Below, in pieces: positions 15,895 through 47,064 of a stretch of DNA of 64,000 nt (position 1 is the stretch's first letter; the number at the start of each line of letters is the position of its first letter). Source of the stretch: a virus. The notes under the pieces were generated by a model. That model worked only from the letters and a program-made list of their open reading frames with translations, ran no database searches and had not been told where the DNA came from. The translations under genes and the position numbers were made by a program. The stretch spans positions 4,202 through 68,201 of IMG/VR virus record IMGVR_UViG_3300048590_000360; one strand, given 5' to 3'.

Positions 15895-15922
15895 AAAAAA
15901 AGGGTGGGAACCACCCCACCCT
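15895..15922 (-). terminator. rho-independent terminator
   Basis: Minus strand: AGGGTGGG-gtggtt-CCCACCCT followed by T7, downstream of 15949..16167. Confidence 0.7.
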
Positions 15923-20336: not shown

Positions 20337-20356
20337 GGTTTCTTGGTTTTTAAAGG

Positions 20357-20656: not shown

Positions 20657-20740
20657 ATTTCCTTCGGTGTCCTTCCTTCGGTGTCCTTCCTTCGGTGTCC
20701 TTCCTTCGGTGTCCTTCCTTCGGTGTCCTTCCTTCGGTGC
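20657..20740. repeat. 14-bp tandem repeat CCTTCCTTCGGTGT x6 (iteron-like)
   Basis: Six head-to-tail copies; the first and last are slightly degenerate. Lies in ORF-free DNA. Confidence 0.9.
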
Positions 20741-20821
20741 ATCAGCGCATTAGCTAATATTACAACAAAGTAGAACGAGTCCGCGGAACGTAGATCGTAA
20801 CGGGGTTAAACCTTTTGTTGT

Positions 20822-20829
20822 TATCTTTG
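20822..20829 (+). promoter_or_regulatory. plus-strand -7 box TATCTTTG with no ORF downstream
   Basis: Matches TAnnTTTG. No ORF above 30 aa follows for about 900 nt on the plus strand. Confidence 0.3.
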
Positions 20830-21741
20830 TACCTGGCACCGGCTAAATGAATCCTTCAACGTGCTGACACTAAAGTACTCATAACATGCATTATGTTAAA
20901 TAGGGATTTTTGTAACCGATTAAAAACTAACGTGTTATATTATTGTCTATACAAGAGTTGTTTTATAACGGGTGAAAAGAAAATATAAAACATTGATTTT
21001 CAAGGATGAACAAAGCAGTGTTATTTTGTCGTGAAAATTCGTTAAAAGGTGGTGTAAAACGGGGAAAGGTGCGGACGGCTGCAATACGTTAAATGTACTG
21101 CGTTATCGTTGCGCGGTTGGTGTCGGGATATAGGTTGAATGGTTTGGCTGTGTTAAAACCGATTTAAATCATATTTTAACGTATCCTTGCTGCGGTGTAT
21201 CTTCTCGGAATGTACCCCATGCCCCTCTGAATCCCGTTTCCTTTTTCGCACATCCCCCCTTCAATGCCATATAACCCCTTGACTGGACCGTTACGTATGA
21301 GATTCAATGGGGTTATTGAGGGATACTGCAGGATGGTGTTTGAAGGAATTGGTATTGGTGAAAGGGGCTGTGTGGAATTGTGATTTGCTTGATGGGTATG
21401 TGGGGTGTCACTGTATTATTGAATTATTTGTTTAAGTGACATTGCATAACTATGTAATTTTCTGGGGTGTTATGTGTTATTACTTAAAGTAATTGTTTAA
21501 TAGTTGTGTGTGTTGATTGGTTGTTTGGTGGTAGGCTTCCAACGGTTTGTTGGTGTTTTATTGGGGGCTGATTGACACTAAGTATGTGATTTTGAGGTAT
21601 GGTTATTTTTTGTGATTTGGTGATAGGATTCCAATAATGACGTGGTATTGAATATTTTTTTTGTTTAATATATACTATGGTGAGTTCTGCTACAAGCTAC
21701 GACACATTTCATTAGTGGGTTCATTCGTAAGCTGTTGTTGA

Positions 21742-21789
21742 TTATAATAGATATTTCAGTTTTTGTACAACGATTTTGTAAATGTCCAT
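21742..21789 (-). pseudogene. 5' stub of the tyrosine recombinase gene (14 identical codons, then L-stop)
   Basis: MDIYKIVVQKLKYL is identical at DNA level to codons 1-14 of 43262..44053. Confidence 0.85.
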
Positions 21790-21834
21790 GCTGTAACCCC
21801 TTATTTTATTGGTATTGTTGTTATATGGTAGTTA
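21748..21834. repeat. 87-bp perfect direct repeat, copy 1 (attI-like junction of array A)
   Basis: Base-for-base identical to 44012..44098. Ends in GTTA of GTTATCGG. Confidence 0.95.
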
Positions 21835-21843
21835 TCGGCAACC

Positions 21844-22206
21844 CTAAGCGGACACCACAAACAATTCAGTTCCATATAGAGAATAGAAAATATTTTGTAG
21901 TTCGTGGACATATTGTAAGTCTGTTAAAACTAATTGACAAACAAAATTGCCTTGAATAAATCTAAATTTATCATCAGCAGTTGATATACCTACATTGTTG
22001 TCTTTGTTGTAAAATTTATCTTGTATTTTGCTGTTTGTAAATCCAAAATCGGTGAGCCATTTATCAGTTAGTTTTACAGGATAAAATGGTTTGTCTAATT
22101 CATTTTGTAAGTACATTGCGAATAAAGAGCCATCCAACTTTATAATATCTTCGTTAAAAGAAACATAGTTTCCTACTCTTATTTGTGTTGCGTTTAAATA
22201 TTTCAT
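21844..22206 (-). CDS. cassette ORF A1, hypothetical
   Basis: 120-aa ORF. TAG stop 13 nt from the junction core. Confidence 0.6.
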   Translation of the reverse strand: MKYLNATQIRVGNYVSFNEDIIKLDGSLFAMYLQNELDKPFYPVKLTDKWLTDFGFTNSKIQDKFYNKDNNVGISTADDKFRFIQGNFVCQLVLTDLQYVHELQNIFYSLYGTELFVVSA

Positions 22207-22255
22207 TTTTTATTTGTTTAAATTGTTAATAATCATTCCGAAAGAAGGGCAGCCG

Positions 22256-22341
22256 ATAACAGCGTATAAAGTAAACCGCCAATCCCCACCCACGTAGCCA
22301 ACGCAATTGTCGGCTTCCCTTATACGCAAAAGCGTTAGCGG
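22256..22341 (+). repeat. attC-like imperfect inverted repeat
   Basis: ATAAC-A-GCGTATAA..TTATACGC-AAAAGC-GTTAGCGG. Confidence 0.6.
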
Positions 22342-22349
22342 AAATGATT

Positions 22350-22592
22350 TTACCCACCCATATCTACAATAGTAGGTTTAATCGGTTCACCGCCAACCGA
22401 AGCGAATAGAGATAGTTTTTTACTTGGTTTACCATCTTCAACCATCCAAGCAATTGAACCGCAACAAGGCGTTGAACCTGTCCAGTTTTTTAATTGAGTT
22501 TTACATACGTTACATTCCACCCAAAAATCACTATCCGCTAACACATTATTTGCGTCAGTGGGGGTGTTGTTTTTCAAATCGTCGTTTTGCAT
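22350..22592 (-). CDS. cassette ORF A2, Cys-rich (zinc-ribbon-like)
   Basis: 80 aa with CNVCK..CCGS. Confidence 0.55.
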   Translation of the reverse strand: MQNDDLKNNTPTDANNVLADSDFWVECNVCKTQLKNWTGSTPCCGSIAWMVEDGKPSKKLSLFASVGGEPIKPTIVDMGG

Positions 22593-22616
22593 ATTATTAA
22601 AATTTAGTTTTTCAAA

Positions 22617-22670
22617 TTAACTGTGGTGGTGTAATGCCCCACCGAACGCAAATAATCGGCACGTTAGCAG
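22617..22670 (+). repeat. attC-like element (variant class)
   Basis: TTAAC-T-GTGGTGG..CCCCACC-GAACGCAAA..CAC-GTTAGCAG. The A3 stop TAA lies inside the core. Confidence 0.5.
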
Positions 22671-22906
22671 TCAGTTTGCCCCAAATCACCGTAAGGCTTT
22701 TGAAGTGCTTTACTACTAATAGCTATTTCTCCGTTAGGAAGTTCATTGCAATGGCAAACCGAACTGCTAACAGGCGGTTGGCGCAATACTTGTTTCATCG
22801 CTTCGATTAAAGTGTGGTACATTTCAGCATCGCTTACTTTGTCATTCTCGCTTTTCGGGTATCTATTGTCTATTACCCATTGTGCTATTTCTTGTATCGT
22901 TTTCAT
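22664..22906 (-). CDS. cassette ORF A3, hypothetical
   Basis: 80-aa ORF. Confidence 0.55.
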   Translation of the reverse strand: MKTIQEIAQWVIDNRYPKSENDKVSDAEMYHTLIEAMKQVLRQPPVSSSVCHCNELPNGEIAISSKALQKPYGDLGQTDC

Positions 22907-22946
22907 ATCAAAATTTTGTTTTAATTATTCGTACTGCGCCAACCGC

Positions 22947-22959
22947 CAAACCGTTATAA
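22947..22959 (+). repeat. hairpin-less boundary AAACC-GTTATAAC
   Basis: Core only, with the conserved 5-nt spacer. Confidence 0.35.
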
Positions 22960-22970
22960 CCAATAGGGGT

Positions 22971-23168
22971 TCAGTCCTTCGATTTAACATTTCGGTTGGC
23001 GGTTTTCTTATTTTTTTGCACACGCTCTTTGGTTTTTTCAAAACCATTAGATTTTGATTCTCGTTCCAAAATATCCTGTGCCAAGTTTTTAAAATCCGTG
23101 TTCTCATCAATGGCTCTCTTGCTCAATGATTTTACACATTCATCTGATAAATCAAGTAGTTTTTTCAT
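22971..23168 (-). CDS. cassette ORF A4, ribbon-helix-helix-like
   Basis: LDLSDECVKSLSKRAIDENTDFKNLAQDILE fits an RHH strand-helix-helix pattern. Confidence 0.45.
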   Translation of the reverse strand: MKKLLDLSDECVKSLSKRAIDENTDFKNLAQDILERESKSNGFEKTKERVQKNKKTANRNVKSKD

Positions 23169-23604
23169 ATCCTTTATTTAGTATTTTTCTACAACTTTCC
23201 GCGTCCTTTCCGTTTGGTTGGTGTTTTAGTTTCCACAAAGAACTACTTGCGTAATGTTTTGCCAAACTTTCGCACTTTTCAAATGGAACAATAGTATAGA
23301 TATACGAAGTAATCTCTATACTGCTTTCGGTATTACCGCCAAACATAGCTTCGCTTTCTTCAACACAACAAGATAAAACTGGTTCACTTTCATTATCTTC
23401 AAATTTTATCACTGAAAGTTCTTTAATTACATCACTTATTGTAGTAGATTTTAATTGTACATTCTTTTCTTTTTTATCAAACCAATGAATGTAATTACGA
23501 TGTAGTGTAGTAAAATCACGTTTTTTCAAAAGCTCAATAGCTTCATTCCTACTTTTAGTAGTTGATTTTAGGTAATGCTGATATACTATTTCTTCTTGTG
23601 TCAT
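23152..23604 (-). CDS. cassette ORF A5, hypothetical
   Basis: 150-aa ORF overlapping A4 by 17 nt. Confidence 0.55.
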   Translation of the reverse strand: MTQEEIVYQHYLKSTTKSRNEAIELLKKRDFTTLHRNYIHWFDKKEKNVQLKSTTISDVIKELSVIKFEDNESEPVLSCCVEESEAMFGGNTESSIEITSYIYTIVPFEKCESLAKHYASSSLWKLKHQPNGKDAESCRKILNKGYEKTT

Positions 23605-23615
23605 AATCGTTATTT

Positions 23616-23906
23616 TTAAAGGGTTTTAAAGTAGTTAAGTAATTGATTAAAATACTTCCCGTAATACTCAATAGCATAGCCATTCATATAAGCAGGTTTT
23701 ACACTTTCTCTTTGTGAGGCAACCACATTAATTCCTAAAGTTTTTGCTGCAAAATCAACAAAGTTTTCAAGTTTGGTGTCGAGCCATTTAATATCACAAT
23801 CCCTAAATTCTCCTTTATTTAATTGGTTTATTATTTTAGTAATCGGGTCTATTAAAGAAACTTCGATAATAAACTGGTCAATTGCTGTGTTGTTTGTTGC
23901 TTTCAT
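23616..23906 (-). CDS. cassette ORF A6, hypothetical
   Basis: 96-aa ORF behind the -7 box at 23931. Confidence 0.55.
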   Translation of the reverse strand: MKATNNTAIDQFIIEVSLIDPITKIINQLNKGEFRDCDIKWLDTKLENFVDFAAKTLGINVVASQRESVKPAYMNGYAIEYYGKYFNQLLNYFKTL

Positions 23907-23930
23907 TTTGTTTCGTTTTTAATTCTGATA

Positions 23931-23938
23931 CAAATATA
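23931..23938 (-). promoter_or_regulatory. -7 box TATATTTG
   Basis: 24 nt before the ATG at 23906; TTTGAAAC lies upstream. Confidence 0.4.
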
Positions 23939-24091
23939 TACCATATATACGATATATACAAGTAAAAGTTTCAAATATTTTAAAACTAACTGATTTTCAA
24001 AGAGAATAATTTTTAAATCCCTCCCTAAAAAAATAAGAAAACTGCTGTTTCTGCTCCGAATTTGGCTTTGTGCTAAACAATCCCTACTGGT

Positions 24092-24146
24092 TATAACAGC
24101 ACATTGGCGGCATTAAAACGACCGCCAATCTGCATCACGTTGTATG
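24092..24146 (+). repeat. attC-like imperfect inverted repeat
   Basis: TATAAC-A-GCACATTGGCGG-cattaaaacga-CCGCCAATCTGC-ATCAC-GTTGTATG. Confidence 0.6.
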
Positions 24147-24489
24147 CAATTATGGCGCAAAAGACCAGGTAAATAGCCAAATATTTTTAGTAAATAGTGA
24201 GTTTAGGATTAGAAAATGACTTAATTTTTGTCAAGCCTTGCAAAGTAGATTTGCTGAAAAGTATTTTCAAAGCGAATTACGCTAAAAGGCTTGCAAAGGT
24301 ATTAGAAAAAAAAGACAAAGTCAAATTTTTATTCTAATACGATCATAAACTGCTATTTATTAAAGAGATGGCTTGGTTTGTAAAAGACTAATCTTATCCC
24401 TTTGGGGCATAAGACCAATATTTTTCAATCATTTAACTAGGTTTTTTGCGGCATAACTGGGACTGTTTTCATAACTTAGCCGAGTTAGA

Positions 24490-24572
24490 ATAACAGCACA
24501 CAACAACAGGTTTGTTCAATGCCTGCCGCCGGCGCAACACAGGCACTGCACAAACCTGCTATACGTTAGGTG
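24490..24572 (+). repeat. attC-like imperfect inverted repeat
   Basis: ATAAC-A-..CAGGTTTGT..ACAAACCTGC-TATAC-GTTAGGTG, with an inner TGCCTG/CAGGCA stem. Confidence 0.55.
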
Positions 24573-24612
24573 CAATAAAAAATAAATTTCCCACCGCACC
24601 AAACTAACAACA

Positions 24613-24879
24613 TTAATCCTTCTTTTTAGAGTATTGAAAAACCAATTGGTTGGCAATGTGGTTAAACTCTAAATTGTTTTTGTCATCGCCTGTAATCTTA
24701 TTGAAAAGATGCGTAGGCATAATGTTTGCCAACGCGTGGAAAAAATGCGTAAGGTTATCGCCTTCTTGTAATTCTTGTTGGTCAATGTGAAAATCACTTT
24801 CGCTATCTTCATCAAAGAGTTCCGCAATTTTTCCACTTAACATTGCCGCATAATGTAAATGTTTTTCGGTCTGTGCCAT
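24613..24879 (-). CDS. cassette ORF A7, hypothetical
   Basis: 88-aa acidic ORF. Confidence 0.55.
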   Translation of the reverse strand: MAQTEKHLHYAAMLSGKIAELFDEDSESDFHIDQQELQEGDNLTHFFHALANIMPTHLFNKITGDDKNNLEFNHIANQLVFQYSKKKD

Positions 24880-24928
24880 AATTGAAATTTGTTTTAAAAG
24901 CCCACGCTAAATTTATTTTTTACAGACA

Positions 24929-25027
24929 CCTAACAGCAGGTAGGCAAAATGCCGCTATGAGCCTGAGTGCTTTGATATTTACATTTGTGGTAAGCGTCAC
25001 TATCGCCTACCTGCAAACCGTTAGCGG
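24929..25027 (+). repeat. attC-like imperfect inverted repeat
   Basis: (A)CCTAAC-A-GCAGGTAGGC..59 nt..GCCTACCTGC-AAACC-GTTAGCGG. Confidence 0.65.
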
Positions 25028-25033
25028 AAAATG

Positions 25034-25369
25034 CTACATCCACTCATCCAACGGAACATTTTTAGTTTTAAATTTTTTGCCTTGAACTGTTAGCACGTAG
25101 TCAAAATTTGCTCTTTGCCAATTACTTTGGTGTATCAACCCCATTCTAACCAATCGAAACAAAATAGACGAATTAAATGTGAACTCACCTTTTGCAGAAC
25201 AACAAGTAACTGTTGATGTACAAGATTGTGTTATCAATTGCCATCCATTTTGAAGACAAAAAACAATCATATTTTGTTTTGGAGTTAGTTTTAATTTAAC
25301 CGCATCATCCGCTAACACGTGTTTTGCGTCAGGCGGGGTTTCGTGGTTAATTGCAGTTTGTGTTTTCAT
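25034..25369 (-). CDS. cassette ORF A8, hypothetical
   Basis: 111-aa ORF. Confidence 0.55.
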   Translation of the reverse strand: MKTQTAINHETPPDAKHVLADDAVKLKLTPKQNMIVFCLQNGWQLITQSCTSTVTCCSAKGEFTFNSSILFRLVRMGLIHQSNWQRANFDYVLTVQGKKFKTKNVPLDEWM

Positions 25370-25397
25370 AATTTAATTTTGTTTAAGTTGAAAGTTT

Positions 25398-25443
25398 GCG
25401 GTTTTCAAACCCGCCCGAACGCAAAGCACCTTAACGTTGTAGG
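25398..25443 (+). repeat. attC-like element (variant class)
   Basis: GCGGTTT-tc-AAACCCGC then CCGAACGCAAAGCACCTTAAC-GTTGTAGG. Confidence 0.45.
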
Positions 25444-25454
25444 CAATTGCCTTG

Positions 25455-25688
25455 CTATAAAAGCGTATTGCCACATTTTCCGCAAAAGTCTTGAACTTTA
25501 CTGTTTACCCTGTTATTTTCGCAATCGCAAGGCAACTGTTCGCTTCGCCCTACAACAGGGGCTATATGTAATACTTGGATCATTGCTTCGTAAATAACTT
25601 CAAGTTGATTTGAGTTAAATTCTTGCTCAACGCTTGTAAAGTTTCCAAATGTATTTAATGCTTCTAATAATATTTTTTCTTTATCCAT
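25455..25688 (-). CDS. cassette ORF A9, hypothetical (C-terminal CxC..CxxC)
   Basis: 77-aa ORF. Confidence 0.55.
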   Translation of the reverse strand: MDKEKILLEALNTFGNFTSVEQEFNSNQLEVIYEAMIQVLHIAPVVGRSEQLPCDCENNRVNSKVQDFCGKCGNTLL

Positions 25689-25733
25689 TTCTATTAAGTT
25701 TTATCGTTAATAAATCGTACTACATATAGCCCC

Positions 25734-25746
25734 AAACCGTTAGCTG
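25734..25746 (+). repeat. hairpin-less boundary AAACC-GTTAGCTG
   Basis: The A10 stop TAA lies inside the core. Confidence 0.35.
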
Positions 25747-26003
25747 CAAGCTGGCAGACTAATCCACGCAATAACGCTTCCGTTTGTATGTTGTGGTCGC
25801 ATATCATTAACCCAAACAATTACCCGATTATCTTCAAGCCTTAAATGACATACATCCATTTTACCATAGTCGGTTAATATTAGCACTGGTTTACCAAATT
25901 CGGGTAATTGTTTTTCTACTGGAATCCAGCCAGCAGCTAACACAGTATTGCCGACAATTGCGGGTTCTGTGGTAGGTTCAACTTTTTGTTTTTTATTGTT
26001 CAT
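25740..26003 (-). CDS. cassette ORF A10, DUF551-like
   Basis: WIPVEKQLP ... VIAWISLP pattern. Confidence 0.5.
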   Translation of the reverse strand: MNNKKQKVEPTTEPAIVGNTVLAAGWIPVEKQLPEFGKPVLILTDYGKMDVCHLRLEDNRVIVWVNDMRPQHTNGSVIAWISLPACS

Positions 26004-26036
26004 TTGTGCAAATTTTGAAGTTTTTTAATTCTAATT

Positions 26037-26069
26037 CCGCAACTGCGGCAATACTCGGAACGTTAGCAC
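26037..26069 (+). repeat. attC-like element (variant class)
   Basis: CCGCA-ac-TGCGG hairpin, then ..CGGAAC-GTTAGCAC. Confidence 0.45.
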
Positions 26070-26074
26070 CAATA

Positions 26075-26308
26075 CTACGAGTGTGCTGCAAAAACCTGAT
26101 TATCCCTTAATCGTATTTGTTCTCTTATCTTTTCGGCTAATTGTTCTACTTCGTCAGAATAAGAACATATAACAGTTCCGTCCTCTTTTTTTAAGGCTAT
26201 AGGCATTGCGTTTGCGTATAAGTCAAATAGTGCCTTAAATAGTTCTTTTCTGTGGCTATCATTCAAAATAGCTTCTCTTTGTTTTTGGTAATATTTTTGG
26301 TCTTTCAT
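26075..26308 (-). CDS. cassette ORF A11, hypothetical
   Basis: 77-aa ORF. Confidence 0.55.
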   Translation of the reverse strand: MKDQKYYQKQREAILNDSHRKELFKALFDLYANAMPIALKKEDGTVICSYSDEVEQLAEKIREQIRLRDNQVFAAHS

Positions 26309-26344
26309 TCTATTTATATTTTGTTGTTAATAATCCGTACTGGT

Positions 26345-26408
26345 GCTAACAGCAAATAAGCAAAACTCCGCTATCGCTACGCTTCGCCTATTTGCAAACC
26401 GTTAGCGG
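26345..26408 (+). repeat. attC-like imperfect inverted repeat (type example)
   Basis: GCTAAC-A-GCAAATAAGC-24 nt-GCCTATTTGC-AAACC-GTTAGCGG. The A12 stop TAA lies inside the core. Confidence 0.7.
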
Positions 26409-26719
26409 TCATTGCCGCCAAGCCCAAGTCCCTTAATTATCCTTTCCATAAAGTCGCCACTTTTTTTCACATCGCAAGTTTCGTTAAACCATTTTTCGTC
26501 CTCTTCATTTTCAGGAAAAACAATGTTGCACCTCATAGCAGTTTCCCTTAGAAGCGGCAACGAACCGCTAACATCGGGTTGGGCTAAATTTTTATTGGCT
26601 ACGAGTTGCGCGTATTCGGAAAGGATAATTGATACTTTCCCTTTCGTGTAGAACTCTTCCCCTTCATCATTAGTATAGTCTGGTGTCCACATTTTCAAAA
26701 CTTCCATTTCTCTTGTCAT
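26402..26719 (-). CDS. cassette ORF A12, hypothetical
   Basis: 105-aa acidic ORF. Confidence 0.55.
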   Translation of the reverse strand: MTREMEVLKMWTPDYTNDEGEEFYTKGKVSIILSEYAQLVANKNLAQPDVSGSLPLLRETAMRCNIVFPENEEDEKWFNETCDVKKSGDFMERIIKGLGLGGNDR

Positions 26720-26777
26720 GCTATTTATATTTAGTCGTTAATAATCCGCCAATAAAAACTTCGCCAACCCGTCCACC

Positions 26778-26827
26778 GTTATAGCACATTAAAACGATGC
26801 TATAACAGCGCATAAGAGAAGTTAAGG
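26778..26827 (+). repeat. core hairpin GTTATAGCA-11 nt-TGCTATAAC plus left arm of a 20-bp inverted repeat
   Basis: The left arm GCGCATAAGAGAAGTTAAGG pairs with 27111..27130. Confidence 0.65.
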
Positions 26828-27085
26828 CTTAGATAGTGCTTCGAGCAAAGATTCTGCATGAAGAACAGCCAACTCACTAATACCACTTGGTGAGAATGTC
26901 ATACTTCCTCCTTGTGTCATTCCTCCGTTACAATTTGCTAATAATCCTTGCATCGCTAATCCTGCAAAATACTCCTTCTTAGTTAAACCATATTGGGTAA
27001 AACTTCCATTAGGATCAAGCATAGAATCTATGTATTCTTTACCTTTAATTCTAGCATTCGTTTGCTGTTCTGTTTCCTTTTCCAT
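26822..27085 (-). CDS. cassette ORF A13, hypothetical
   Basis: 87-aa ORF lying wholly between the two arms of the 20-bp inverted repeat. Confidence 0.55.
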   Translation of the reverse strand: MEKETEQQTNARIKGKEYIDSMLDPNGSFTQYGLTKKEYFAGLAMQGLLANCNGGMTQGGSMTFSPSGISELAVLHAESLLEALSKP

Positions 27086-27110
27086 AATCTAATTTTTTTA
27101 ATTTGTTTCG

Positions 27111-27143
27111 CCTTAACTTCTCCTATGCGCCTACCGTTAGCGG
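27111..27143 (+). repeat. right arm of 20-bp inverted repeat + CTACC-GTTAGCGG
   Basis: CCTTAACTTCTCCTATGCGC, 19/20 complementary to 26808..26827. Confidence 0.65.
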
Positions 27144-27196
27144 CAAGCGTAGGACACCACTCCGAATAAACAGCATCCTACACAAACCGAAAAAGG

Positions 27197-27571
27197 CTAC
27201 ACAATTTCTCTCAAGTGCCGTAAATTGCTTTCTGCCTTTTCATTTAGGTCATTCAAACTGTAAAGCAAACGAATGATTTCTTCCGTTACGCTTTCGGGCT
27301 GTTTTTCTTCCATAGCTTCTTTAAGCGTTGAAGGTTCGTCATACCTTTTAATCGTTTGCAATTTGCTTTTAGTTTCGCATACAATACCATCGTAGCGATT
27401 TACGGCACTTTGTAACCTTTCGATAATCACATTCAATTCAGGTTGATGAACCGAAGTAGGCATATCTTCTGTTAATACTTCTGGCGCAATTTGAATTACT
27501 TTTTCATAATGCACTTCTCCACCCTGAGTTACTTTCAGAATGTCACCGATTTTCAATTTACTTTTGTCCAT
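27197..27571 (-). CDS. hypothetical protein (possible last unit of array A)
   Basis: 124-aa ORF. Its leader resembles the cassette leaders, and AAACCG motifs without TTA lie at 27184 and 27618. Confidence 0.55.
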   Translation of the reverse strand: MDKSKLKIGDILKVTQGGEVHYEKVIQIAPEVLTEDMPTSVHQPELNVIIERLQSAVNRYDGIVCETKSKLQTIKRYDEPSTLKEAMEEKQPESVTEEIIRLLYSLNDLNEKAESNLRHLREIV

Positions 27572-30851: not shown

Positions 30852-31753
30852 TTCTTTAACTTCTTTTTACGTAGATCATTGTCCTTCGGTGAGGACTTAT
30901 CTAATGCACCAACCTTATCTTTGAAATTACGAATTTTATAGTTTCCACCAATTCCAGAAATATCCTCAGCACGCCAATATCCACCAACACCACCAGATGT
31001 ATCACCTTTACTCCTATATGTATCCCCACGGTATTGTCCTGTTTTATCCGTACCTGAGATGTTTTTCTTTCCTGAACCTTTTTCGTACAGTTGCCCCCCT
31101 GTATCTATACGACGGGTTGAATTTAGATTAGATAGACCATTACCTGAATTAATTTTAAATTTACTCTTAGACTTTGTGAAACCCCCTTGTCCATCAGGAC
31201 GAAAAGATGCTACTTTGATTTTTTTAAGTCCCCCTCGTTTGTTTTTAATCAAAGTCACTCTGTTATATCCCTTCCTATCCCTTACTTTAGTCCCTTCTTC
31301 TCCACCTTTGGCCTTACCTCCCGTGTCTAATGTCTCATCCTCTTTGGCCTTAACTGTGGTCGTTCGTCTTTTAAAGACTTTATTGAGAATGTTTCTTTTT
31401 CCATAATATGCTGTCGTTTTATGGGATGTACCCGTTTCTCCTGTAGTGGATGAACCTGACTTATCCCCTTTGGGTTGTTCGTCCTTCATGTTTCGGATAA
31501 TATTTGCAGTCCCCGTCGTGAAACCGTATTTCCCAGCAGTTTCCTTTTCAAGTGTTTCAGACTGGTCTTTCTTTAATCCCCCAGCGTATGTCTCACTACC
31601 TTTATGTTTACTTGAACCATCTTTCTGGCCTATAATAACATTTACGTTCAGGTCTTTCTCTTGTTTACCTTCTCCTTGTGCAGTACTTTTAACACTACTT
31701 TCTACATATCCGTATGTAGTTCTGCGCTTATTCCTTTTTCTCAGCCTGTCCAT
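30848..31753 (-). CDS. highly basic low-complexity (Gly/Lys/Thr-rich) protein
   Basis: 301 aa, KR-rich at both termini with GGxK/TGxT repeats. Own -7 box lies 15 nt upstream. Confidence 0.6.
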   Translation of the reverse strand: MDRLRKRNKRRTTYGYVESSVKSTAQGEGKQEKDLNVNVIIGQKDGSSKHKGSETYAGGLKKDQSETLEKETAGKYGFTTGTANIIRNMKDEQPKGDKSGSSTTGETGTSHKTTAYYGKRNILNKVFKRRTTTVKAKEDETLDTGGKAKGGEEGTKVRDRKGYNRVTLIKNKRGGLKKIKVASFRPDGQGGFTKSKSKFKINSGNGLSNLNSTRRIDTGGQLYEKGSGKKNISGTDKTGQYRGDTYRSKGDTSGGVGGYWRAEDISGIGGNYKIRNFKDKVGALDKSSPKDNDLRKKKLKK

Positions 31754-31768
31754 AAATGATAATTTTTA

Positions 31769-31776
31769 CAAAGATA
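31769..31776 (-). promoter_or_regulatory. -7 box TATCTTTG
   Basis: Between the TerL stop (31789) and the ATG at 31753. Confidence 0.45.
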
Positions 31777-31788
31777 ACATTTTTTGTT

Positions 31789-33879
31789 TCACCTTATTCT
31801 TCGTTTAGTGAATAATGGTTTGGGTTTTGTTCCTTCCTTCATTGATTGTGAAATCTTTTTTCTGGTAAAGTCTTTGGCACCAATATAGGCTAACATAGAT
31901 GCTACCGTTAAGTCATACTTAGTCCAATCTCCAGGTTCAAATTTTAACCAATCATGTAGTAAATCTTCCAAACTACAAGTTCCGTTAAGACTGCGTACTA
32001 TATCTACTTCAGGGATACCTAATTTAGTTAATTGTGTTTCTATAGTTATTTCTCCAATAAAATCATGGATATACCCATGTAGTCTATCCATCAATGTCTC
32101 TCTGACAAACTCTCCTGCTGTACTAATCCCTTCAACGGGTTTTGATGCTTTGTCTCTATTGAGTATTGATTGTTTTGTTTTTTTTATAAATCCCCCGTGT
32201 CCGGATTCCCGAAGGTAATTAATAAGTCCTGGCTTTTGGTTTTCTATGAGTAAGTCCCAAGAATAGAACATTGCTACTTTCAACGCATCATCCCAAAAAA
32301 GTTTCGGGGTTTCTCTCCTGTAACAGTATGAGAACACGAAACAGTTACTTTTGAATATATCCATTGGTTCATAAGCTCTAAACCCTACAATCGCAGCGTT
32401 AGACCTTCTTGTATCTACAGTGGTTTTATGGTCGAATGGGTCAACACCTATACATCCTGATTCTGTAAATTTAGGTTTCCTTCCTGTCATATCCTGTGTG
32501 AAACAGTTTCTGTCTTGTGGTAATGGCATCCACCCCACTTTGAATAATCCTTCAGAATCGTCCACAAATCTTACTACAGTTCTTTCGTCATTTTCAAATA
32601 GAAAATTTCCTACTCTATAAGGAACCGATACAACTGAGGCATTGTGTTCCAACTGTTCGTATATCTTATCAGCAGGAAACCCCTCACCTTTACTGTCAAG
32701 GATAAATGCTTCCATGACGTTTGTAGGGTATTTTCTCTTTTCCTCATTGAGTTTTGTACCTGTTAGTTTAGTTCTTTTGCTTTTAAGATAGTCCAAGGCA
32801 CCAATGGTTTCCGTTTCTCCTTCATTGTTAGTGAATGGTTTTAATGGTGTTTCAATTACTGAATATCCATATTCATCAATGAATCCACTTAGTCCGTGTT
32901 GCGCTGGTTTGAAGTATCTGTATAATCCTGAAATAGTCCTTCCATCGTCTTTCCTATTGTTTGCGTCTGAATCCCTCCATAGATTTGCAACAGGTTCACC
33001 CCCTGCCCTGTTTGTTTCTTCTACAGTAGATGAAAGGTATGCTTTACCTACAATGGTTTTTCCAACTTCTAAGCATGGTTTCAAAATGTACCACCGTGAT
33101 TCTGGGTTTGCATTTGATGGTTTTCCTATCTCATCCTGATAGTTCCTGAATTGTCGTGTTCCATCGTATGCTTCTTCTTTAGATGATTCATAATCAATGA
33201 AACTATTAAGTACGTTTTTGTAGGTTTTCTTTTCGCCTTTTGTGCTTCTGCGTGCGGGTTCTTCAAACTTTAATGCTTTTTGTGGTGAAGTCTGCCCTGA
33301 GTCAATAGGTTTCCAAAAGTCAGGTAATTTCTTCCAACTTTTTACCATCTTCAGGAAGATACGTAAAGCATCAATGTCTGTCTTAGATTGAATCCCTGAT
33401 TGCTCATCCTTCACTAAGGACGTTGCTTCATATAGGATACATGAACCTTTATATGTTTTTCCTGAACGTCTATCGGAAATGAATAATAATCCGTAACAGT
33501 TTTTATCTTTAACACATAAGTCCCAAACGTAAAAGAAGTCTCTGTCAGATTCGCGCCATTCCGGAAGGTCTTTGCCAATGTACCAATATGTGAGGTAAAA
33601 ATAATGTAACCCTGTTATGTATTCTATCTTCCCATTATTATAAAAGAAGATACCGTTTTTTCTTCTGTCAAGTTCCCTAATGTATAACTGTTCTTGTTCT
33701 TGTACTGATAAGGCATTCCAACGGAGATGGTCTTTCGGTGCTTTCCACTTGTGATTGTACTTTTGGTTAGAATTAAGGATTTGAGAAACTTCTGGTGGTT
33801 CTGGTAGGTGTATTTTGTATTTATACCCTGTCCCATCGTCAATCTCCCTGATTTTTTTAAAATCCTTAACCGATTCCAT
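31789..33879 (-). CDS. terLw: terminase large subunit
   Basis: Walker A-like DRRSGKT (compare T4 gp17 SRQLGKT), Walker B-like NYQDE, nuclease-type GVDPFDH. The 696-aa size fits. Confidence 0.75.
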   Translation of the reverse strand: MESVKDFKKIREIDDGTGYKYKIHLPEPPEVSQILNSNQKYNHKWKAPKDHLRWNALSVQEQEQLYIRELDRRKNGIFFYNNGKIEYITGLHYFYLTYWYIGKDLPEWRESDRDFFYVWDLCVKDKNCYGLLFISDRRSGKTYKGSCILYEATSLVKDEQSGIQSKTDIDALRIFLKMVKSWKKLPDFWKPIDSGQTSPQKALKFEEPARRSTKGEKKTYKNVLNSFIDYESSKEEAYDGTRQFRNYQDEIGKPSNANPESRWYILKPCLEVGKTIVGKAYLSSTVEETNRAGGEPVANLWRDSDANNRKDDGRTISGLYRYFKPAQHGLSGFIDEYGYSVIETPLKPFTNNEGETETIGALDYLKSKRTKLTGTKLNEEKRKYPTNVMEAFILDSKGEGFPADKIYEQLEHNASVVSVPYRVGNFLFENDERTVVRFVDDSEGLFKVGWMPLPQDRNCFTQDMTGRKPKFTESGCIGVDPFDHKTTVDTRRSNAAIVGFRAYEPMDIFKSNCFVFSYCYRRETPKLFWDDALKVAMFYSWDLLIENQKPGLINYLRESGHGGFIKKTKQSILNRDKASKPVEGISTAGEFVRETLMDRLHGYIHDFIGEITIETQLTKLGIPEVDIVRSLNGTCSLEDLLHDWLKFEPGDWTKYDLTVASMLAYIGAKDFTRKKISQSMKEGTKPKPLFTKRRIR

Positions 33880-43261: not shown

Positions 43262-44053
43262 TTAGATTGGTAAATTCACTTTTGAAAGCAACTGATTTGA
43301 AACGTGCGTGTATATTTCCGTGGTTTTTATATTTGAGTGTCCTGCAATCTTTTGAATAATCCTTGTGTCTGTACCTGATTCAAGCATAGCGGTAAATGAT
43401 GAATGCCTGAGAAGGTGGAAATGATAATCCTTGCCGATGTATTTTTTGACAATTTGGTTGCAACTTGCAGATGAATATTGATTACTGAATTGCCCGTTAA
43501 AAAGGTATTCTGTTGGTTTATATTCTTTGTAGTATTCTCTTAGCGTGGTGAGTATTGTTTGGCTTAGTGGCACGATTCTATCCTTTCTACCTTTGGCGTT
43601 TTTGATGTAAATTATCATTCTACTGGAATCAATGTCGGTTATCTTTAGGTTGATTATTTCTGAAACTCTAAGTCCTACACTAAATGCCAATGATATAATT
43701 GCTTTATGCTTTAAGTTTTCGATGTTATTGATAGACTTAATAAGGTGTTCTCTATCAATTACTCTTGGTAGTTTCTTTTCGGAACGGGGTCTGTTAAAAT
43801 GAACCTTGTCGTATTTTTTGTTTAATCCGTATTTGTATAAGAATCTTATTGCGTTAATAATTTGATTCTGTTGTGATACTGATTTGAACGGATAATTGTC
43901 TAAATACTGCTGAAACTCTTTTGCGGAAACTCTTGATATATGTACTTTACTTTTTGATAGGTATTCGTCAATATAATATAAGTAAACTTTTTGTGTGTTT
44001 TCTGAATAATTTAGATATTTCAGTTTTTGTACAACGATTTTGTAAATGTCCAT
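43262..44053 (-). CDS. tyrosine site-specific recombinase (XerC/D-sized)
   Basis: GLRVSE (Arg), KGRKDR (Lys), HLLRHS (HxxR), GHSNIKTTEIYTHV (His, Tyr). N-terminal SAM-like core-binding domain. 263 aa. Confidence 0.9.
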   Translation of the reverse strand: MDIYKIVVQKLKYLNYSENTQKVYLYYIDEYLSKSKVHISRVSAKEFQQYLDNYPFKSVSQQNQIINAIRFLYKYGLNKKYDKVHFNRPRSEKKLPRVIDREHLIKSINNIENLKHKAIISLAFSVGLRVSEIINLKITDIDSSRMIIYIKNAKGRKDRIVPLSQTILTTLREYYKEYKPTEYLFNGQFSNQYSSASCNQIVKKYIGKDYHFHLLRHSSFTAMLESGTDTRIIQKIAGHSNIKTTEIYTHVSNQLLSKVNLPI

Positions 44054-44098
44054 GCTGTAACCCCTTATTTTATTGGTATTGTTGTTATATGGTAGTTA
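44012..44098. repeat. 87-bp perfect direct repeat, copy 2 (recombinase start + 45 bp upstream; attI-like junction of array B)
   Basis: Identical to 21748..21834. Ends in GTTA of GTTAGGTG, which matches GTTRRRY. Confidence 0.95.
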
Positions 44099-44107
44099 GG
44101 TGCAATG

Positions 44108-44284: not shown

Positions 44285-44313
44285 TTTTATTTGAATTTGT
44301 GAAAAGCACTGCA

Positions 44314-44397
44314 CCTAACAGCGGTTTTGTGCAAGTTGCCCAACCGGCTCAATGCCCACGCTCCGCAGCCTGACACAAAGCCGCAAAACGTTGGCAG
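44314..44397 (+). repeat. attC-like imperfect inverted repeat
   Basis: (A)CCTAAC-A-GCGGTTTTGTG..42 nt..CACAAAGCCGC-AAAAC-GTTGGCAG. Confidence 0.65.
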
Positions 44398-44402
44398 TAA
44401 TG

Positions 44403-45002
44403 CTACGAGAACACCGACCAACTACCATCTTTCTTATTTATTTTCATTACGCCTTTCTTTGACAAATCTTTATCGTATGGATTTTCAAGAAACAAAAACT
44501 CTGTACTTTCCATTGATTTTAAAGAGTTACAATAAAATTCGCCTGTTTCAATGTTGTAGTAATTGCTATCAACTGAATAAATGCAACTACCCTTTTTTAT
44601 GTAAGGGCTTTTAAATTGGTCAAATTCTTTTTTCTCAACTCCGTTTTTATCAATTATGCACCAGCGACCTTCTAAATGTTTTCTTTGTAATTCAAGTTCT
44701 TTTCGACTTTTATTTGGATAGCATTTTTTAATAAAATCATAATCATAAATTGCTTCTACATATTTAAGAAGCATAAAATAATCTTGTTTTATATCACCCC
44801 CAAATCCACCAACACGATAAAGCGATTTGCTTATTAATTCACCATTTTTTGTAAGGCAAACAAAATCATTACTATTATTATTCCACTCATTCAAATAATC
44901 TTGATTAACCTGAATAGGGGATAACTGCAAAGCACTACTGCCAACATCTGCTTTATGCAAGTGGGGCTGAACTGCTAAATTGAACATTTGTAATTCTATC
45001 AT
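44403..45002 (-). CDS. cassette ORF B2, hypothetical
   Basis: 199-aa ORF. Confidence 0.6.
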   Translation of the reverse strand: MIELQMFNLAVQPHLHKADVGSSALQLSPIQVNQDYLNEWNNNSNDFVCLTKNGELISKSLYRVGGFGGDIKQDYFMLLKYVEAIYDYDFIKKCYPNKSRKELELQRKHLEGRWCIIDKNGVEKKEFDQFKSPYIKKGSCIYSVDSNYYNIETGEFYCNSLKSMESTEFLFLENPYDKDLSKKGVMKINKKDGSWSVFS

Positions 45003-45038
45003 CTTTTGTACTTTATTTAAACATTAGTTTTTCAAATT

Positions 45039-45071
45039 CCCCACCTGACATAAAGCAGTGGGCGTTATGCT
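45039..45071 (+). repeat. attC-like element (variant class)
   Basis: CCCAC..GTGGG hairpin then C-GTTATGCT. The B3 stop TAA lies inside the core. Confidence 0.45.
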
Positions 45072-45271
45072 CCATTGCTACGGAAGTACTCAGAATTAGC
45101 ATTTGAGATAACATTTTTATTCTTTTCTTCCTTCGCTTTGAAATAAGAAACAAGAATACTTTCAACCGTGTTATTAAAACTTGGTCTGTTTGTTTCTTCC
45201 CGTTCTTTTTCTATTGCTTCAACTAACCAATCGTTTTTGTCAGTTAGTTTTAATGATATTCTCTTACTCAT
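45065..45271 (-). CDS. cassette ORF B3, ribbon-helix-helix protein
   Basis: MSKRISLKLTDKNDWLVEAIEKE.. has an N-terminal beta-strand plus two helices. Paralog of 47065..47250. Confidence 0.5.
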   Translation of the reverse strand: MSKRISLKLTDKNDWLVEAIEKEREETNRPSFNNTVESILVSYFKAKEEKNKNVISNANSEYFRSNGA

Positions 45272-45608: not shown

Positions 45609-45742
45609 ATACTTTTGTTTCAAATAACCTAATCTTTTTTCAATTATTTTTTAAAGCGTTGATAATCAGCCACCACACAAAAGAATAAAAATGTTTGTAG
45701 TGCTTCGATTGAAAGAATGTACTAAATTGACCGCAACGAGAG

Positions 45743-45838
45743 CATAACACGTGCTATAAGCAAGTTTGCCAATAACATTTGTGCTAAATTTGAACATTTC
45801 TGCAAGGCAAACCTGCTCATAGCACCATACGTTGTGCG
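45743..45838 (+). repeat. attC-like imperfect inverted repeat (20-bp stem)
   Basis: CATAAC-AC-GTGCTATAAGCAAGTTTGCC..35 nt..GGCAAACCTGCTCATAGCAC-CATAC-GTTGTGCG. Confidence 0.65.
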
Positions 45839-45841
45839 TAA

Positions 45842-46057
45842 TTAAAGTATCTCTACCAATTTACCACTTTCCAATATTTTGGTTAGGCAATTGCCACACC
45901 TATTTTGTACTGCCGATTCTCCAATAACTTGAAACCTAATCAAGTCATTTAATTTATGATATTCGCCACATCCTAAGCAATTATAACTACGCACAACATT
46001 ATGTATAGCACATTGCTTTTCTACCTTTTTGCTAAATAATTTCTTAATCCAGTTCAT
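45842..46057 (-). CDS. cassette ORF B5, zinc-ribbon-like
   Basis: CLGCG..CGNC pairs. Confidence 0.5.
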   Translation of the reverse strand: MNWIKKLFSKKVEKQCAIHNVVRSYNCLGCGEYHKLNDLIRFQVIGESAVQNRCGNCLTKILESGKLVEIL

Positions 46058-46081
46058 ATTGTTTTTAATTTAGGTTAGTTG

Positions 46082-46128
46082 TGGCAACGTGCCATACACT
46101 CGTCCGTTAGCCGTAATGCCGTTAGACA
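46082..46128 (+). repeat. attC-like element (variant) with two adjacent cores
   Basis: TGGCA-acg-TGCCA, ..CGTCC-GTTAGCCGTAATGCC-GTTAGACA. Confidence 0.45.
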
Positions 46129-46448
46129 TCATCATCACCTTTGACAAGTTCCAACTGACCGACATAGAAATCGCCACAATCTTTTTTATATGCAATGTTT
46201 TTTTGCTTAAATGTTTCTTCTAAATCAGCTTGACATAAGCAATAATCAAGTTCAAGCGTATTGTAATAGTCCTCTTTTATTGGCAAAAAACCAAAGTGAG
46301 TTTCAAATTCTCGTGGCGTTCCTATTTCTACTTCGCCTCTATTTATTACTACGATATGGCACATACGGCTAACAGCGTGTTTATGCAAGCGGGCGGACAG
46401 CTTGCGGTTAATATTTAAGTTCGTGCTATGCCCGCCTGACATAAACAC
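46122..46448 (-). CDS. cassette ORF B6, hypothetical
   Basis: The longest ORF reads through the hairpin at 46368..46463. The internal ATG at 46364 (MCHIVVINRG.., 80 aa) is the more likely start. Confidence 0.45.
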   Translation of the reverse strand: MFMSGGHSTNLNINRKLSARLHKHAVSRMCHIVVINRGEVEIGTPREFETHFGFLPIKEDYYNTLELDYCLCQADLEETFKQKNIAYKKDCGDFYVGQLELVKGDDDV

Positions 46449-46463
46449 GCAAAACGTTAGGCG
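46368..46463 (+). repeat. attC-like imperfect inverted repeat
   Basis: GCTAAC-A-GCGTGTTTATG-caa-GCGGGC..GCCCGC-ctga-CATAAACACGC-AAAAC-GTTAGGCG (perfect 11-bp and 6-bp stems). Confidence 0.7.
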
Positions 46464-46468
46464 TAATG

Positions 46469-46690
46469 CTAATCAACCGAAATTAATTTAGCATAGACCA
46501 TTTTTGTATCGAAATGTTCCTCCAAAACTTTAGTTATTTCTTCTATTGAAATATCATCAGCATTTTTAGGGTTAAATCCATATTCCCATTTACAATATTC
46601 ATCATCTATTGTAATGATAAAAGCACTACGCCTAACAGCACCTAAATCGCTATTGGCTGTTTTGTGGTTAATTGATTTTTCGTGTTCCAT
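46469..46690 (-). CDS. cassette ORF B7, hypothetical
   Basis: 73-aa ORF. Confidence 0.55.
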   Translation of the reverse strand: MEHEKSINHKTANSDLGAVRRSAFIITIDDEYCKWEYGFNPKNADDISIEEITKVLEEHFDTKMVYAKLISVD

Positions 46691-46731
46691 TGTTACTTTA
46701 TTTTAAGTTGATAATTCTTTGTTTTAAATCG

Positions 46732-46763
46732 CCAACAGCGTTTAGCTGCGGAACCGTTATAAA
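46732..46763 (+). repeat. minimal/degenerate attC-like element
   Basis: CCAAC-A-GCG..GC-GGAACC-GTTATAAA. Confidence 0.35.
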
Positions 46764-46771
46764 ACAGTTTG

Positions 46772-46993
46772 CTATTCAAATTTATCACTCCAACATTTCA
46801 TACTGCAACACGGGGCATACTTGCTATTCATCGGCTTACCGCAATCGCAAACCGATTTTATAACATGGGCTAAACCCAATGCTTGCATTATCGTTTCATA
46901 ATAAAATCCCAAATTACATTCTTCATTTTGTACTCCTTTTTCATATACTTTAAACAGTAGTTTCTCTATTTGCTTTCTTTTTTGCTTTGCCAT
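46772..46993 (-). CDS. cassette ORF B8, Cys-rich
   Basis: 73 aa, CDCG..CCSMKC. Confidence 0.55.
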   Translation of the reverse strand: MAKQKRKQIEKLLFKVYEKGVQNEECNLGFYYETIMQALGLAHVIKSVCDCGKPMNSKYAPCCSMKCWSDKFE

Positions 46994-47037
46994 TTCAATT
47001 AAATTTTGTTGTTAATAGTCGCACTGTGTTTAGCCCC

Positions 47038-47050
47038 GTTCCGTTATGCT
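47038..47050 (+). repeat. hairpin-less boundary GTTCC-GTTATGCT
   Basis: Start of the duplicated RHH unit. Confidence 0.4.
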
Positions 47051-47064
47051 CCATTGCTACGGAA

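Follow-up and report, generated by a model that had tools for sequence, protein, structure and literature searches.

Hairpin-bounded gene cassettes in an uncultured phage genome: a probable integron-like platform associated with a compact tyrosine recombinase

In integrons, the attC recombination sites are imperfect palindromes of variable length and sequence closed by inverted boxes of the RYYYAAC and GTTRRRY type, the cassette boundary lies inside a box so that its distal bases belong to the neighbouring cassette, and a simple, non-palindromic site (attI) stands beside the recombinase gene at the start of the array. One attC strand folds preferentially, with the crossover at the AAC core of its 5' end. 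Neighbour-linked boxes of this kind first defined the boundaries of integron cassettes, and are the expected outcome when circularised units are re-inserted through a crossover within the core triplet. The integrase IntI combines the PF00589 domain with an IntI-specific region, the latter being required by IntegronFinder, and recombinases without this region near attC sites are few, are accompanied by fewer than three sites and were regarded as 'not IntI' (Cury et al.; PMC4889954). Escudero et al. (PMC7790495) credit the shift of IntI to single-strand recombination to the gain of the I2 helix. Here we describe a family of hairpins in a 64,000-nucleotide stretch of viral DNA (IMG/VR record IMGVR_UViG_3300048590_000360, positions 4,202 to 68,201; hereafter the window, meaning the whole stretch that was analysed) in which the traits of integron sites and arrays listed first recur, but not the IntI-specific region. 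These hairpins are most probably the attC-like sites of a phage-encoded, integron-like cassette platform, of which an 84-bp sequence starting with TAAC/TACC (here and below, a slash within a sequence marks the junction) would be the attI equivalent and a 263-amino acid (aa) tyrosine recombinase without I2 the presumed catalyst.

Other described systems share part of these traits. The promoter-early stem-loop (PeSL) cassettes of T4-type phages are small ORFans of a hyperplastic region, each with a stem-loop and a conserved expression signal, for which module shuffling has been proposed; their exchange is thought to be homologous, and a tyrosine recombinase, an AAC/GTT core and chain-linked boxes are not known to be involved. 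Integration of CTX-phi uses a folded attP with an unpaired central region, at which one pair of strands is exchanged, followed by replicative resolution. Its likeness to the present system is that a Xer-type tyrosine recombinase lacking the IntI domain acts on a folded single strand (PMC3442271), and its difference is that the recombinases are the host XerC/XerD, the target is the chromosomal dif, each phage carries a single site and there are no cassettes or arrays. Clusters of attC sites lacking a cognate integrase (CALINs) have been reported in virulent phages, where they were treated as integron attC sites, two to three per phage and without a cognate recombinase (Qi et al., 2023; PMC9892861); the chain-link analysis, the simple site and the recombinase family are not described in that work. 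Full-text literature searches, which do not cover subscription-only papers, gave no account of phages or Bacteroidota in which a platform of hairpin-bounded cassettes is combined with a recombinase other than IntI.

The window contains 19 hairpins, counted with looser criteria and neighbour information, which are all oriented in the same direction and form two arrays at 22.2-27.1 kb (array 1, 12 hairpins in 22252-27144) and 44.3-47.1 kb (array 2, 7 hairpins in 44311-47051). On the minus strand, which carries nearly all open reading frames (ORFs) of the window and is hereafter called the sense strand, each hairpin consists of YAAC, a spacer of 5-6 nt (consensus G-T/G-T-T-N), a 5' arm, a loop, a 3' arm, a second spacer of 1-3 nt (usually T or TT) and GTTR. 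The YAAC and GTTR cores are invariant by construction, as they were criteria of the scan, while the distal box bases are largely R/Y-compatible and the R boxes, which are inverted relative to each other, conform to RYYYAAC and GTTRRRY. The G after AAC is able to wobble-pair with the lone T, after which a 4-nt bulge remains. Stems are mostly continuous, and no conserved bulged or extrahelical stem bases were seen in a scan that allowed no bulges and may have missed rare ones. The preliminary description of this DNA had listed eight such sites with a fixed asymmetry of one unpaired nucleotide on one side and five on the other. All eight are present as written, yet they are less than half of the family, and the asymmetry itself holds without being fixed, since it amounts to 1-2 and 5-6 nt, rarely 3 on the short side.

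This asymmetry emerges from a blind scan in which every AAC...GTT pair was considered with all spacer combinations of 0-6 nt: on the plus strand, spacers of 1-2 nt follow AAC and spacers of 5-6 nt precede GTT, and the mirror arrangement is at background. In the window and 25 related loci, the spacer classes (5,1), (5,2) and (6,2) on the recombinase-sense strand hold 35, 42 and 17 sites, respectively, compared with only 4, 2 and 4 sites in their mirror classes. The window has 14 strict minus-strand sites and a single one on the plus strand; 30 dinucleotide shuffles of it average 0.4 sites and never exceed 3. Loop sizes group at about 10, 35, 65, 85 and 140-160 nt, and some loops are longer still. 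Several boxes that seem to be orphans belong to long-loop hairpins, with the leader and ATG of the following ORF in the loop and the 3' arm within its coding sequence; the 5' boxes at 25741, 22955 and 47045, first taken as lacking a hairpin, proved to be of this type.

The site on which the first observation was made, hairpin c3 (26342..26409), reads ACCGCT-AAC-GGTTT-GCAAATAGGCGAAGC..GTTTTGCTTATTTGC-T-GTT-AGCACC on the sense strand and is matched by the covariance model R1 with 25.7 bits, on the minus strand only. All hairpins of both arrays are on this strand. In array 1, c3 is preceded by c1 (26798..27144), whose 21-bp arms (27130-27110 and 26828-26808) flank the whole of an 87-aa ORF at 27085-26822, and by c2 (26564..26786), with AAC at 26780-26778, GTT at 26572-26570, an 8-bp outer stem and a loop formed by the leader and start of the ORF 26719-26402. 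The site described earlier at 26808 is the 3' side of c1; it exists, but its partner arm is at 27111-27130 and the 'hairpin' thus encloses a complete gene. Downstream of c3 follow c4 (25933..26070), the loop of which includes the ATG of ORF 26003-25740; c5 (25548..25747), with a 17-bp stem and a 142-nt loop that holds a leader and the ATG at 25688, its 3' arm being within the ORF; c6 (25308..25444); c7 (24926..25028); c8 (24496..24573), with a stem of about 21 bp; c9 (24089..24147), of the short class with loop TCGTTTTAATG (model R1, 38.3 bits, E = 2e-7); c10 (22763..22961), with a 17-bp stem and a 141-nt loop; c11 (22534..22671), a module 76-86% identical to hairpins of five other loci; and c12 (22252..22342), the last of the array. 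Array 2 begins with the long-loop hairpin d1 (46856..47051) and continues with d2 (46628..46764), d3 (46365..46464), d4 (45989..46114), which has a wobble-rich stem and a loop that includes the ATG of ORF 46057-45842, d5 (45740..45839), with a 20-bp stem, d6 (44937..45072) and d7 (44311..44398).

Pairing in the stems is maintained by changes on both sides. In 46 sites aligned in the 5/1 register, the ten outer stem pairs are paired in 93.9% of cases, and both partners vary in nine of them. The covariation score is 0.558, compared with 0.183 in shuffles (none of 500 reaches 0.558) and 0.06-0.12 with slid partners. Because the sites had been picked by pairing, this test is partly circular, and it was therefore repeated on sites defined solely by the complementarity of their outer boxes to neighbouring sites: at least eight contiguous Watson-Crick pairs at the family offsets occur in 30 of these 131 sites and in 7 of 983 control GTT triplets. 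The R1 model, built from loop-trimmed sites, recovers only the two short-loop sites and for this reason does not help as a detector of the family. The stems had been described as sharing almost no sequence while staying complementary; they do show a T-A pair at stem position 6 in 45 of the 46 sites, a ..TATA.G.AGT.. motif in many arms and recurrent sub-families, e.g., the short class with loop TCGTTTTAATG.

Folding is favoured on the sense strand: with DNA parameters its fold is the more stable of the two in 76 of 85 sites (p = 9e-14), and with RNA parameters in 74 of the 85; for c3, the predicted DNA fold has -13.1 kcal/mol on the sense strand and -8.0 on the antisense strand. Stem mismatches on the sense strand are G.T (81) and T.G (12), 93 in total, against 16 of the C.A (14) and A.C (2) type, and they concentrate at recurrent positions. 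The A.C mismatch that three sites had been noted to share at stem position 8, which would be a G.T wobble on the other strand, is thus part of a recurrent pattern. The comparison of folding energies between top and bottom strands that had been proposed comes out in favour of the sense strand, and together with the excess of wobbles it bears out the suggestion that selection acts on a folded single strand.

The boxes of successive hairpins are linked in a chain: on the sense strand, the six nucleotides that follow a GTT are reverse-complementary to those that precede the next AAC downstream, and not to those at the AAC box of the same site. Among the 14 links first listed in the window, 11 match at 6/6 and 2 at 5/6 positions, with an own-box identity of about 3/6. 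A seeming exception (26806 to 26401) dissolved with the extra box at 26778 and hairpin c2, located 20 nt past c1. With the full list of sites, all 7 links of array 2 are exact 9-mers; of those in array 1, 9 are exact and 3 carry a single mismatch. Over all loci, an exact 9-mer partner is present downstream within 3 kb in 58 of 85 sites (median distance 243 nt), upstream in 8 and in the own box in 1, the random-partner control giving 7.4; this inverted-pair test is strand-symmetric by construction and does not inform about polarity. Read in the light of established integron knowledge, such neighbour-linked boxes are the classic cassette-boundary signature.

Each cassette would have its hairpin at the 5' side of its genes. 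In the longer-loop hairpins the loop provides leader and start codon, and the 3' arm and the GTT box are translated (e.g., ..PDAKHVLADD.. and ..TDANNVLAD.., in which VLA is encoded by GTGTTAGCG); at the other end, three ORFs stop at the TAA within GCTAAC. What is conserved between phages is the hairpin module from AAC to GTT (71-86% identity), which is joined to unrelated ORF bodies. This implies that N-termini encoded by the module are fused to unrelated proteins, and recalls the species-specific attC families of chromosomal integrons. The proteins encoded by the cassettes of the window have no informative Pfam or PHROG matches. A Lar restriction-alleviation protein constitutes one cassette in a related phage locus (L031) and methyltransferases occur among the hairpins of Polaribacter phage P12002L; since only these two cases point to it, anti-defence cargo is hinted at and not established.

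Several further observations concern the cassettes. Hairpin c1 is followed by a 20-nt 'empty body' before the next box. A 35-nt unit, GTTATAGCA-TCGTTTTAATG-TGCTATAAC, is 100% identical in two phages (L001, at 4482-4516 and 7968-8002, and the window, at 26775-26809), and corresponds to such an empty cassette body shrunk to a mini-hairpin. The motif GATTATTAACRA is located 20-30 nt before the start codons of cassettes (22223-22234, 25704-25715, 26324-26335 and 26735-26746, and with one mismatch at 47009-47020), either just past a short hairpin or within a long loop. Its exact copies are found only in cassettes in this phage, and it may be a cassette-borne promoter or translation signal. Array 2 contains a 209-nt duplication (91% identity; 45063-45271 and 47042-47250) that spans a 58-aa ORF (MSKRISLKLTDKNDWLVEAI...), whose product looks like a ribbon-helix-helix protein. 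Both copies have the box GAGCATAAC at their end, and the duplicated gene is at the end of two different cassettes of this array. In array 1, the cassette interval 24141-24502 has no ORF of at least 35 aa on the sense strand, and the cassette starting at 23906-24095 opens with about 190 nt of AT-rich DNA with repeats (TATATATCGTATATATGGTATATATTTGTATC), followed by a block of three ORFs; the ORF-free interval and the AT-rich segment may represent cassettes with a promoter or regulatory function.

An 84-bp sequence, identical in its two copies, closes each array at the end towards which it is transcribed; it reads TAAC/TACCATATAACAACAATACCAATAAAATAAGGGGTTACAGC and is followed by ATG and 14 codons. 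Array 2 ends at this simple site, TAAC/TACCATATAACAACAAT, directly upstream of the recombinase gene (43262..44053, minus strand). This copy (44012..44103, minus strand; GCACCT-AAC-TACCATATAACAACAATACC...) extends into the start codon of the recombinase, and its ATG opens the ORF 44053-43262. The copy that closes array 1 (21748..21839, minus strand; GCCGAT-AAC-TACCATATAACAACAATACC...) contains the first 14 codons of the recombinase with no recombinase gene after it; the window has no second recombinase, and array 1 retains these 14 codons only. A TAAC/..ATATA.. site is present 55-65 nt before the recombinase ATG in 10 of 11 aligned loci. The idea that the simple site could itself form a long-loop hairpin reaching into the recombinase ORF was discarded for the window and most loci, where shuffled sequences do equally well; such a hairpin is possible only in Polaribacter phage Freya (1/200) and borderline in one other locus (L003). 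As it has no hairpin partner in most loci, the window included, the simple site behaves like attI rather than attC.

The recombinase matches PF00589 (2.4e-36) and PF13495 (2e-11). In NCBIfam its best model is XerA_Arch, with 169 bits (cutoff 220), and it reaches 150 bits with the integron-integrase model TIGR02249 (cutoff 265), in two stretches; the best match in the Protein Data Bank (PDB) is XerA of P. abyssi (4a8e). No dif-like site was noticed, although no search aimed at one was made. In the alignment with VchIntIA (2a3v), residues 14-179 correspond to 16-185 and residues 206-259 to 260-313. The IntI-specific insertion (intI_Cterm, or I2) is absent from the protein, which in this 2a3v alignment has 26 residues where IntI4 has 74 and is 263 aa long, compared with about 320 for IntI. 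Its translation includes GLRVSE, HLLRHS and EIYTH, regarded here as its conserved active-site motifs. The family is large: at E <1e-20 there are matches in more than 5,500 protein clusters; the closest 120 are all 263-287 aa long, and the source names shown are all 'XerD'. Its position next to arrays and simple site suggests that this protein catalyses recombination of the hairpins.

The same arrangement recurs in related phages. In IMG/VR homologues (55-70% identity), the recombinase gene has an array of 10 to about 20 hairpins upstream of it, which share its strand and show the spacers and chain links described above. Two contigs (L031 and L032) have an identical recombinase and a 99% identical backbone but unrelated arrays of 3.6-4.0 kb. 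Among cultured phages, the closest homologues are the 'integrases' of Polaribacter phages Freya and Leef and Cellulophaga phage Ingeline, at 39-41% identity. The ten isolates of Freya span 43,978-48,920 bp. In Freya_1, 6, 8, 9 and 10 the flanks are 99.7-100% identical, while the blocks of small ORFs beside the integrase differ. Up to the integrase-proximal site, Freya_10 matches Freya_1 at 100% identity apart from an additional 4.9 kb that carry 12 small ORFs, the junction being TTTACAAC/ACCCCTATAACAACAATAAG (.../ACCCC) in Freya_1, and TTTACAAC/GGATA on the left and TTGCTAAC/ACCCC on the right in Freya_10. In Freya_8, 875 nt are missing between TTTACAAC/ and TTACCAAC/; in Freya_9 it is the last cassette, of 304 nt, that is absent between TTACCAAC/ and TTGCTAAC/, and Freya_6 has other cassettes following TTACCAAC/. 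All these junctions are at the AAC core of the 5' box. The extra cassettes adjoin the simple site of Freya directly, and this site is similar to that of the window. In the description of these isolates the integrase was read as a possible sign of lysogeny or a temperate lifestyle, and cassettes and hairpins are unmentioned (PMC8776804).

Homologues of the recombinase with 37-40% identity are also encoded by bacteria. In Chryseobacterium sp. Leaf394, a metagenome-assembled genome (MAG) of Flavobacteriales and C. luquanense, the gene is preceded by 3-6 near-identical hairpins; their spacers are those of the phage hairpins, the chain links are perfect and the simple site reads AAC/ACCCAAATATAC. 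Here the genes of the cassettes occupy the other strand with a hairpin after each of them, and their products are of 200-585 aa, including DUF5984 (1e-72); ORFs opposite to the folding strand, as in the canonical integron geometry, are thus found in the bacterial relatives (L085, L086 and L112). In Leaf394 the recombinase gene has an internal stop, and the array is formed by near-identical hairpins (L086, 7947-8790). Chryseobacterium sp. POE27 (L087) has an intact 280-aa homologue beside citrate synthase, hence among housekeeping genes and therefore in a chromosomal location. Leaf394 and POE27 suggest that sedentary chromosomal versions of the system exist in Flavobacteriales.

A different situation is found in Polaribacter phage P12002L (L037), which has no annotated recombinase. 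At least nine family-like hairpins (AAC, 6 nt, GTGTAT..ATACAC, 3 nt, GTT) are present on its minus strand at 31118-32924 and 38036-40948, among methyltransferase, Mom-like and small genes, and either a helper may supply the recombinase in trans or the hairpins may be relics. One site of this phage, P12002L_attC1, was called by HattCI and is the one site of six that was not recombined by IntI1 (PMC9892861). It lies at 30059-30005, on the gene-sense strand, between two methyltransferase genes. Its sequence, TGCTAAC-GGCTA-CGGCTAAACGG-TCGTTTTAATG-CCGTTTTAGCC-..GTTAGGC, has the architecture of the family and exactly the loop of hairpin c9 of the window.

In the model that we favour, a cassette would extend from just after one AAC core to the next, in the order 5-6 nt spacer, 5' arm, loop, 3' arm, 1-3 nt spacer, GTT with its distal bases, cargo ORF(s), and distal bases with AA(C). 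On a single-stranded sense strand, an 'R' helix would form between the AAC and GTT boxes and an 'L' helix between the arms, and the 4-nt bulge and the G.T wobbles may mark the strand that folds productively. The 263-aa recombinase would bind the folded hairpin and exchange strands at the AAC core of the 5' box, where the scissile bond presumably lies. With another hairpin as partner the outcome would be excision or shuffling; with the double-stranded TAAC/TAnnATATA simple site upstream of the recombinase gene it would be insertion, as in integrons. One recombinase would serve both arrays of the window.

The phage sense strand would correspond to the bottom strand of an integron, with RYYYAA/C, hairpin, GTTRRRY and cargo, and then AAC/attI and a forward recombinase gene. 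The likeness to integron attC sites proposed in the preliminary description is therefore sustained by the cassette-boundary signature, the attI-like site and the tyrosine recombinase, but not by the internal loop, which is asymmetric (5-6 versus 1-3 nt) where canonical attC has a roughly symmetric spacer; the conserved extrahelical bases of attC were not seen here either. Further differences are that the recombinases of the present system have 263-280 aa and no IntI-specific insertion (I2 region), that the cassette ORFs of the phages are on the folding strand, after their own hairpin and often starting in its loop, so that the array is read towards the recombinase, and that the replicon is a phage, with two arrays and a duplicated simple site. 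Because neither the recombinase domain nor the spacers and extrahelical bases are those of IntI and attC, and the cassette orientation in phages differs as well, the system is not classified as a canonical integron.

Some points weigh against the cassette platform as proposed. The catalytic link from the recombinase to the sites is one that we infer, and the enzyme lacks the region that the integron literature regards as enabling single-strand recombination of attC. Loops of 140-385 nt with coding sequence should fold less efficiently, and hairpins around start codons on the sense strand could also act in the mRNA. Discrete hairpin modules joined to unrelated ORF bodies are not explained by a crossover at the 5' box only; exchange may occur at the 3' box too, or cassettes may be built on a stock of hairpin modules. 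Finally, no obvious or convincing array was found in Cellulophaga phage Ingeline, in spite of its homologous integrase (about 41% identity).

The hairpins could alternatively be RNA elements involved in processing, translational regulation or termination, the recombinase being an ordinary lysogeny integrase. The wobbles, which would be G.U pairs on the transcribed sense strand, the many loops with leader and start codon, the cassette-specific leader motif GATTATTAACRA and the interpretation of these integrases as signs of a temperate lifestyle (PMC8776804) all fit this explanation. It leaves unexplained the chain-linked boxes and the AAC/ junctions of the indels, and the hairpins lack the T-tracts of terminators: intrinsic terminators with a GC-rich stem and a T run number 0 in 21700-27300, compared with 3.7 expected, and Rfam has 0 matches in the window at gathering score. 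Moreover, since hairpin polarity follows the recombinase in the bacterial relatives, and not the cassette genes, which are on the other strand, a function at the DNA level is favoured over one at the RNA level, a choice that the preliminary description had left undecided. We consider RNA elements as the sole explanation improbable, an additional, secondary RNA role in phages being possible. Slightly less probable still is that the hairpins are regulatory stem-loops that assist homologous or illegitimate shuffling as in PeSL cassettes, with no dedicated site-specific recombinase. Small ORFans in a plastic phage region, each with a stem-loop and a conserved leader, and the recurrence of hairpin modules across phages are indeed reminiscent of PeSL; yet the junctions have no more than the 3-nt AAC core and a few bases in common, less than homologous exchange requires, the distal bases of the boxes are specific to the cassette and linked in a chain, and the synteny with recombinase gene and simple site is strict.

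An equally low probability is assigned to the arrays being a fragment of a canonical bacterial integron (CALIN) that was acquired from the host and is recombined by a host IntI. The arrays are tied to a phage-encoded, non-IntI recombinase over several phage backbones, their 5-6 and 1-3 nt spacers are not roughly symmetric and conserved stem bulges were not seen, all of which is at odds with such an origin in spite of the fit of the R boxes to RYYYAAC and GTTRRRY and of the CALINs that searches of the IntegronFinder/HattCI type reported in virulent phages, including P12002L (PMC9892861). Within that data set, P12002L_attC1, with its family architecture and loop TCGTTTTAATG, is the sole phage site of the six on which IntI1 failed. 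The probability that these are chance inverted repeats in AT-rich intergenic DNA is negligible: AAC and GTT are short motifs and background matches do occur, but the counts (14 sites compared with 0.4 in shuffles and with 1 on the opposite strand, and 94 compared with about 10 in the mirror spacer classes) refute it, and the family recurs in related loci.

As for the genome that carries the arrays, PHROG searches identified the large terminase subunit (31789-33879, minus strand), the portal protein (56557-58959) and virion proteins. The nearest cultured relatives of the terminase are from Flavobacterium, Cellulophaga, Tenacibaculum and Maribacter phages (about 32% identity), and blastn of the array and structural region against INPHARED gave no nucleotide match; for these reasons the window most likely belongs to an uncultured phage of the flavobacterial-phage type with a Bacteroidota host. 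A search for tRNA genes in the window found none. About 2 kb downstream of array 1 is a gene for a RadC-like JAB domain protein (PF04002, 7.8e-35; 19129-19575, minus strand). Between them, the approximately 1.4 kb past the attI-like copy of array 1 (20337-21747) have no ORF longer than 45 aa on the gene strand, which is unusual in a densely coded genome, and no Rfam match at gathering score. A giant ORF of 2862 aa (85-8673, minus strand) contains a 90-nt tandem duplication (80% identity) near its 5' end (8466-8555 and 8565-8654) and is followed by a 1225-aa virion protein at 12237-15914. Between the recombinase region and the terminase there are a Cpn10/GroES-like gene (34252-34566, minus strand) and a run of glycosyltransferase-like genes (34563-38254, minus strand), whose Pfam assignments were taken from an identical contig (L118).

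Integrons are currently defined by IntI and its extra domain, while in the system described here a recombinase without I2 is tightly linked to arrays of 7-20 hairpin-bounded cassettes. We lean slightly towards the wider hypothesis that this is a second, so far unrecognised integron lineage of Bacteroidota and their phages, in which a compact, I2-less, Xer-like recombinase acts on folded hairpins, an asymmetric 4-nt bulge and G.T wobbles replace the extrahelical bases, and the phage cassettes are inverted, the hairpin doubling as 5' leader and N-terminal module. Such a lineage would allow real-time exchange of small accessory and possibly anti-defence genes, as in the Polaribacter phage isolates of a bloom season. 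A cultured system is at hand in phage Freya and its host, in which isolates of one sampling campaign differ by whole cassettes, and a compact recombinase with short structured sites could be of biotechnological interest. If the proposal is true, the integron strategy is broader than thought or has more than one origin, and an entire branch of it escapes the detection tools now in use. Phages would thereby gain a dedicated, site-specific route to acquire, lose and reorder small accessory genes, which bears on the long-standing question of their 'hyperplastic' regions.

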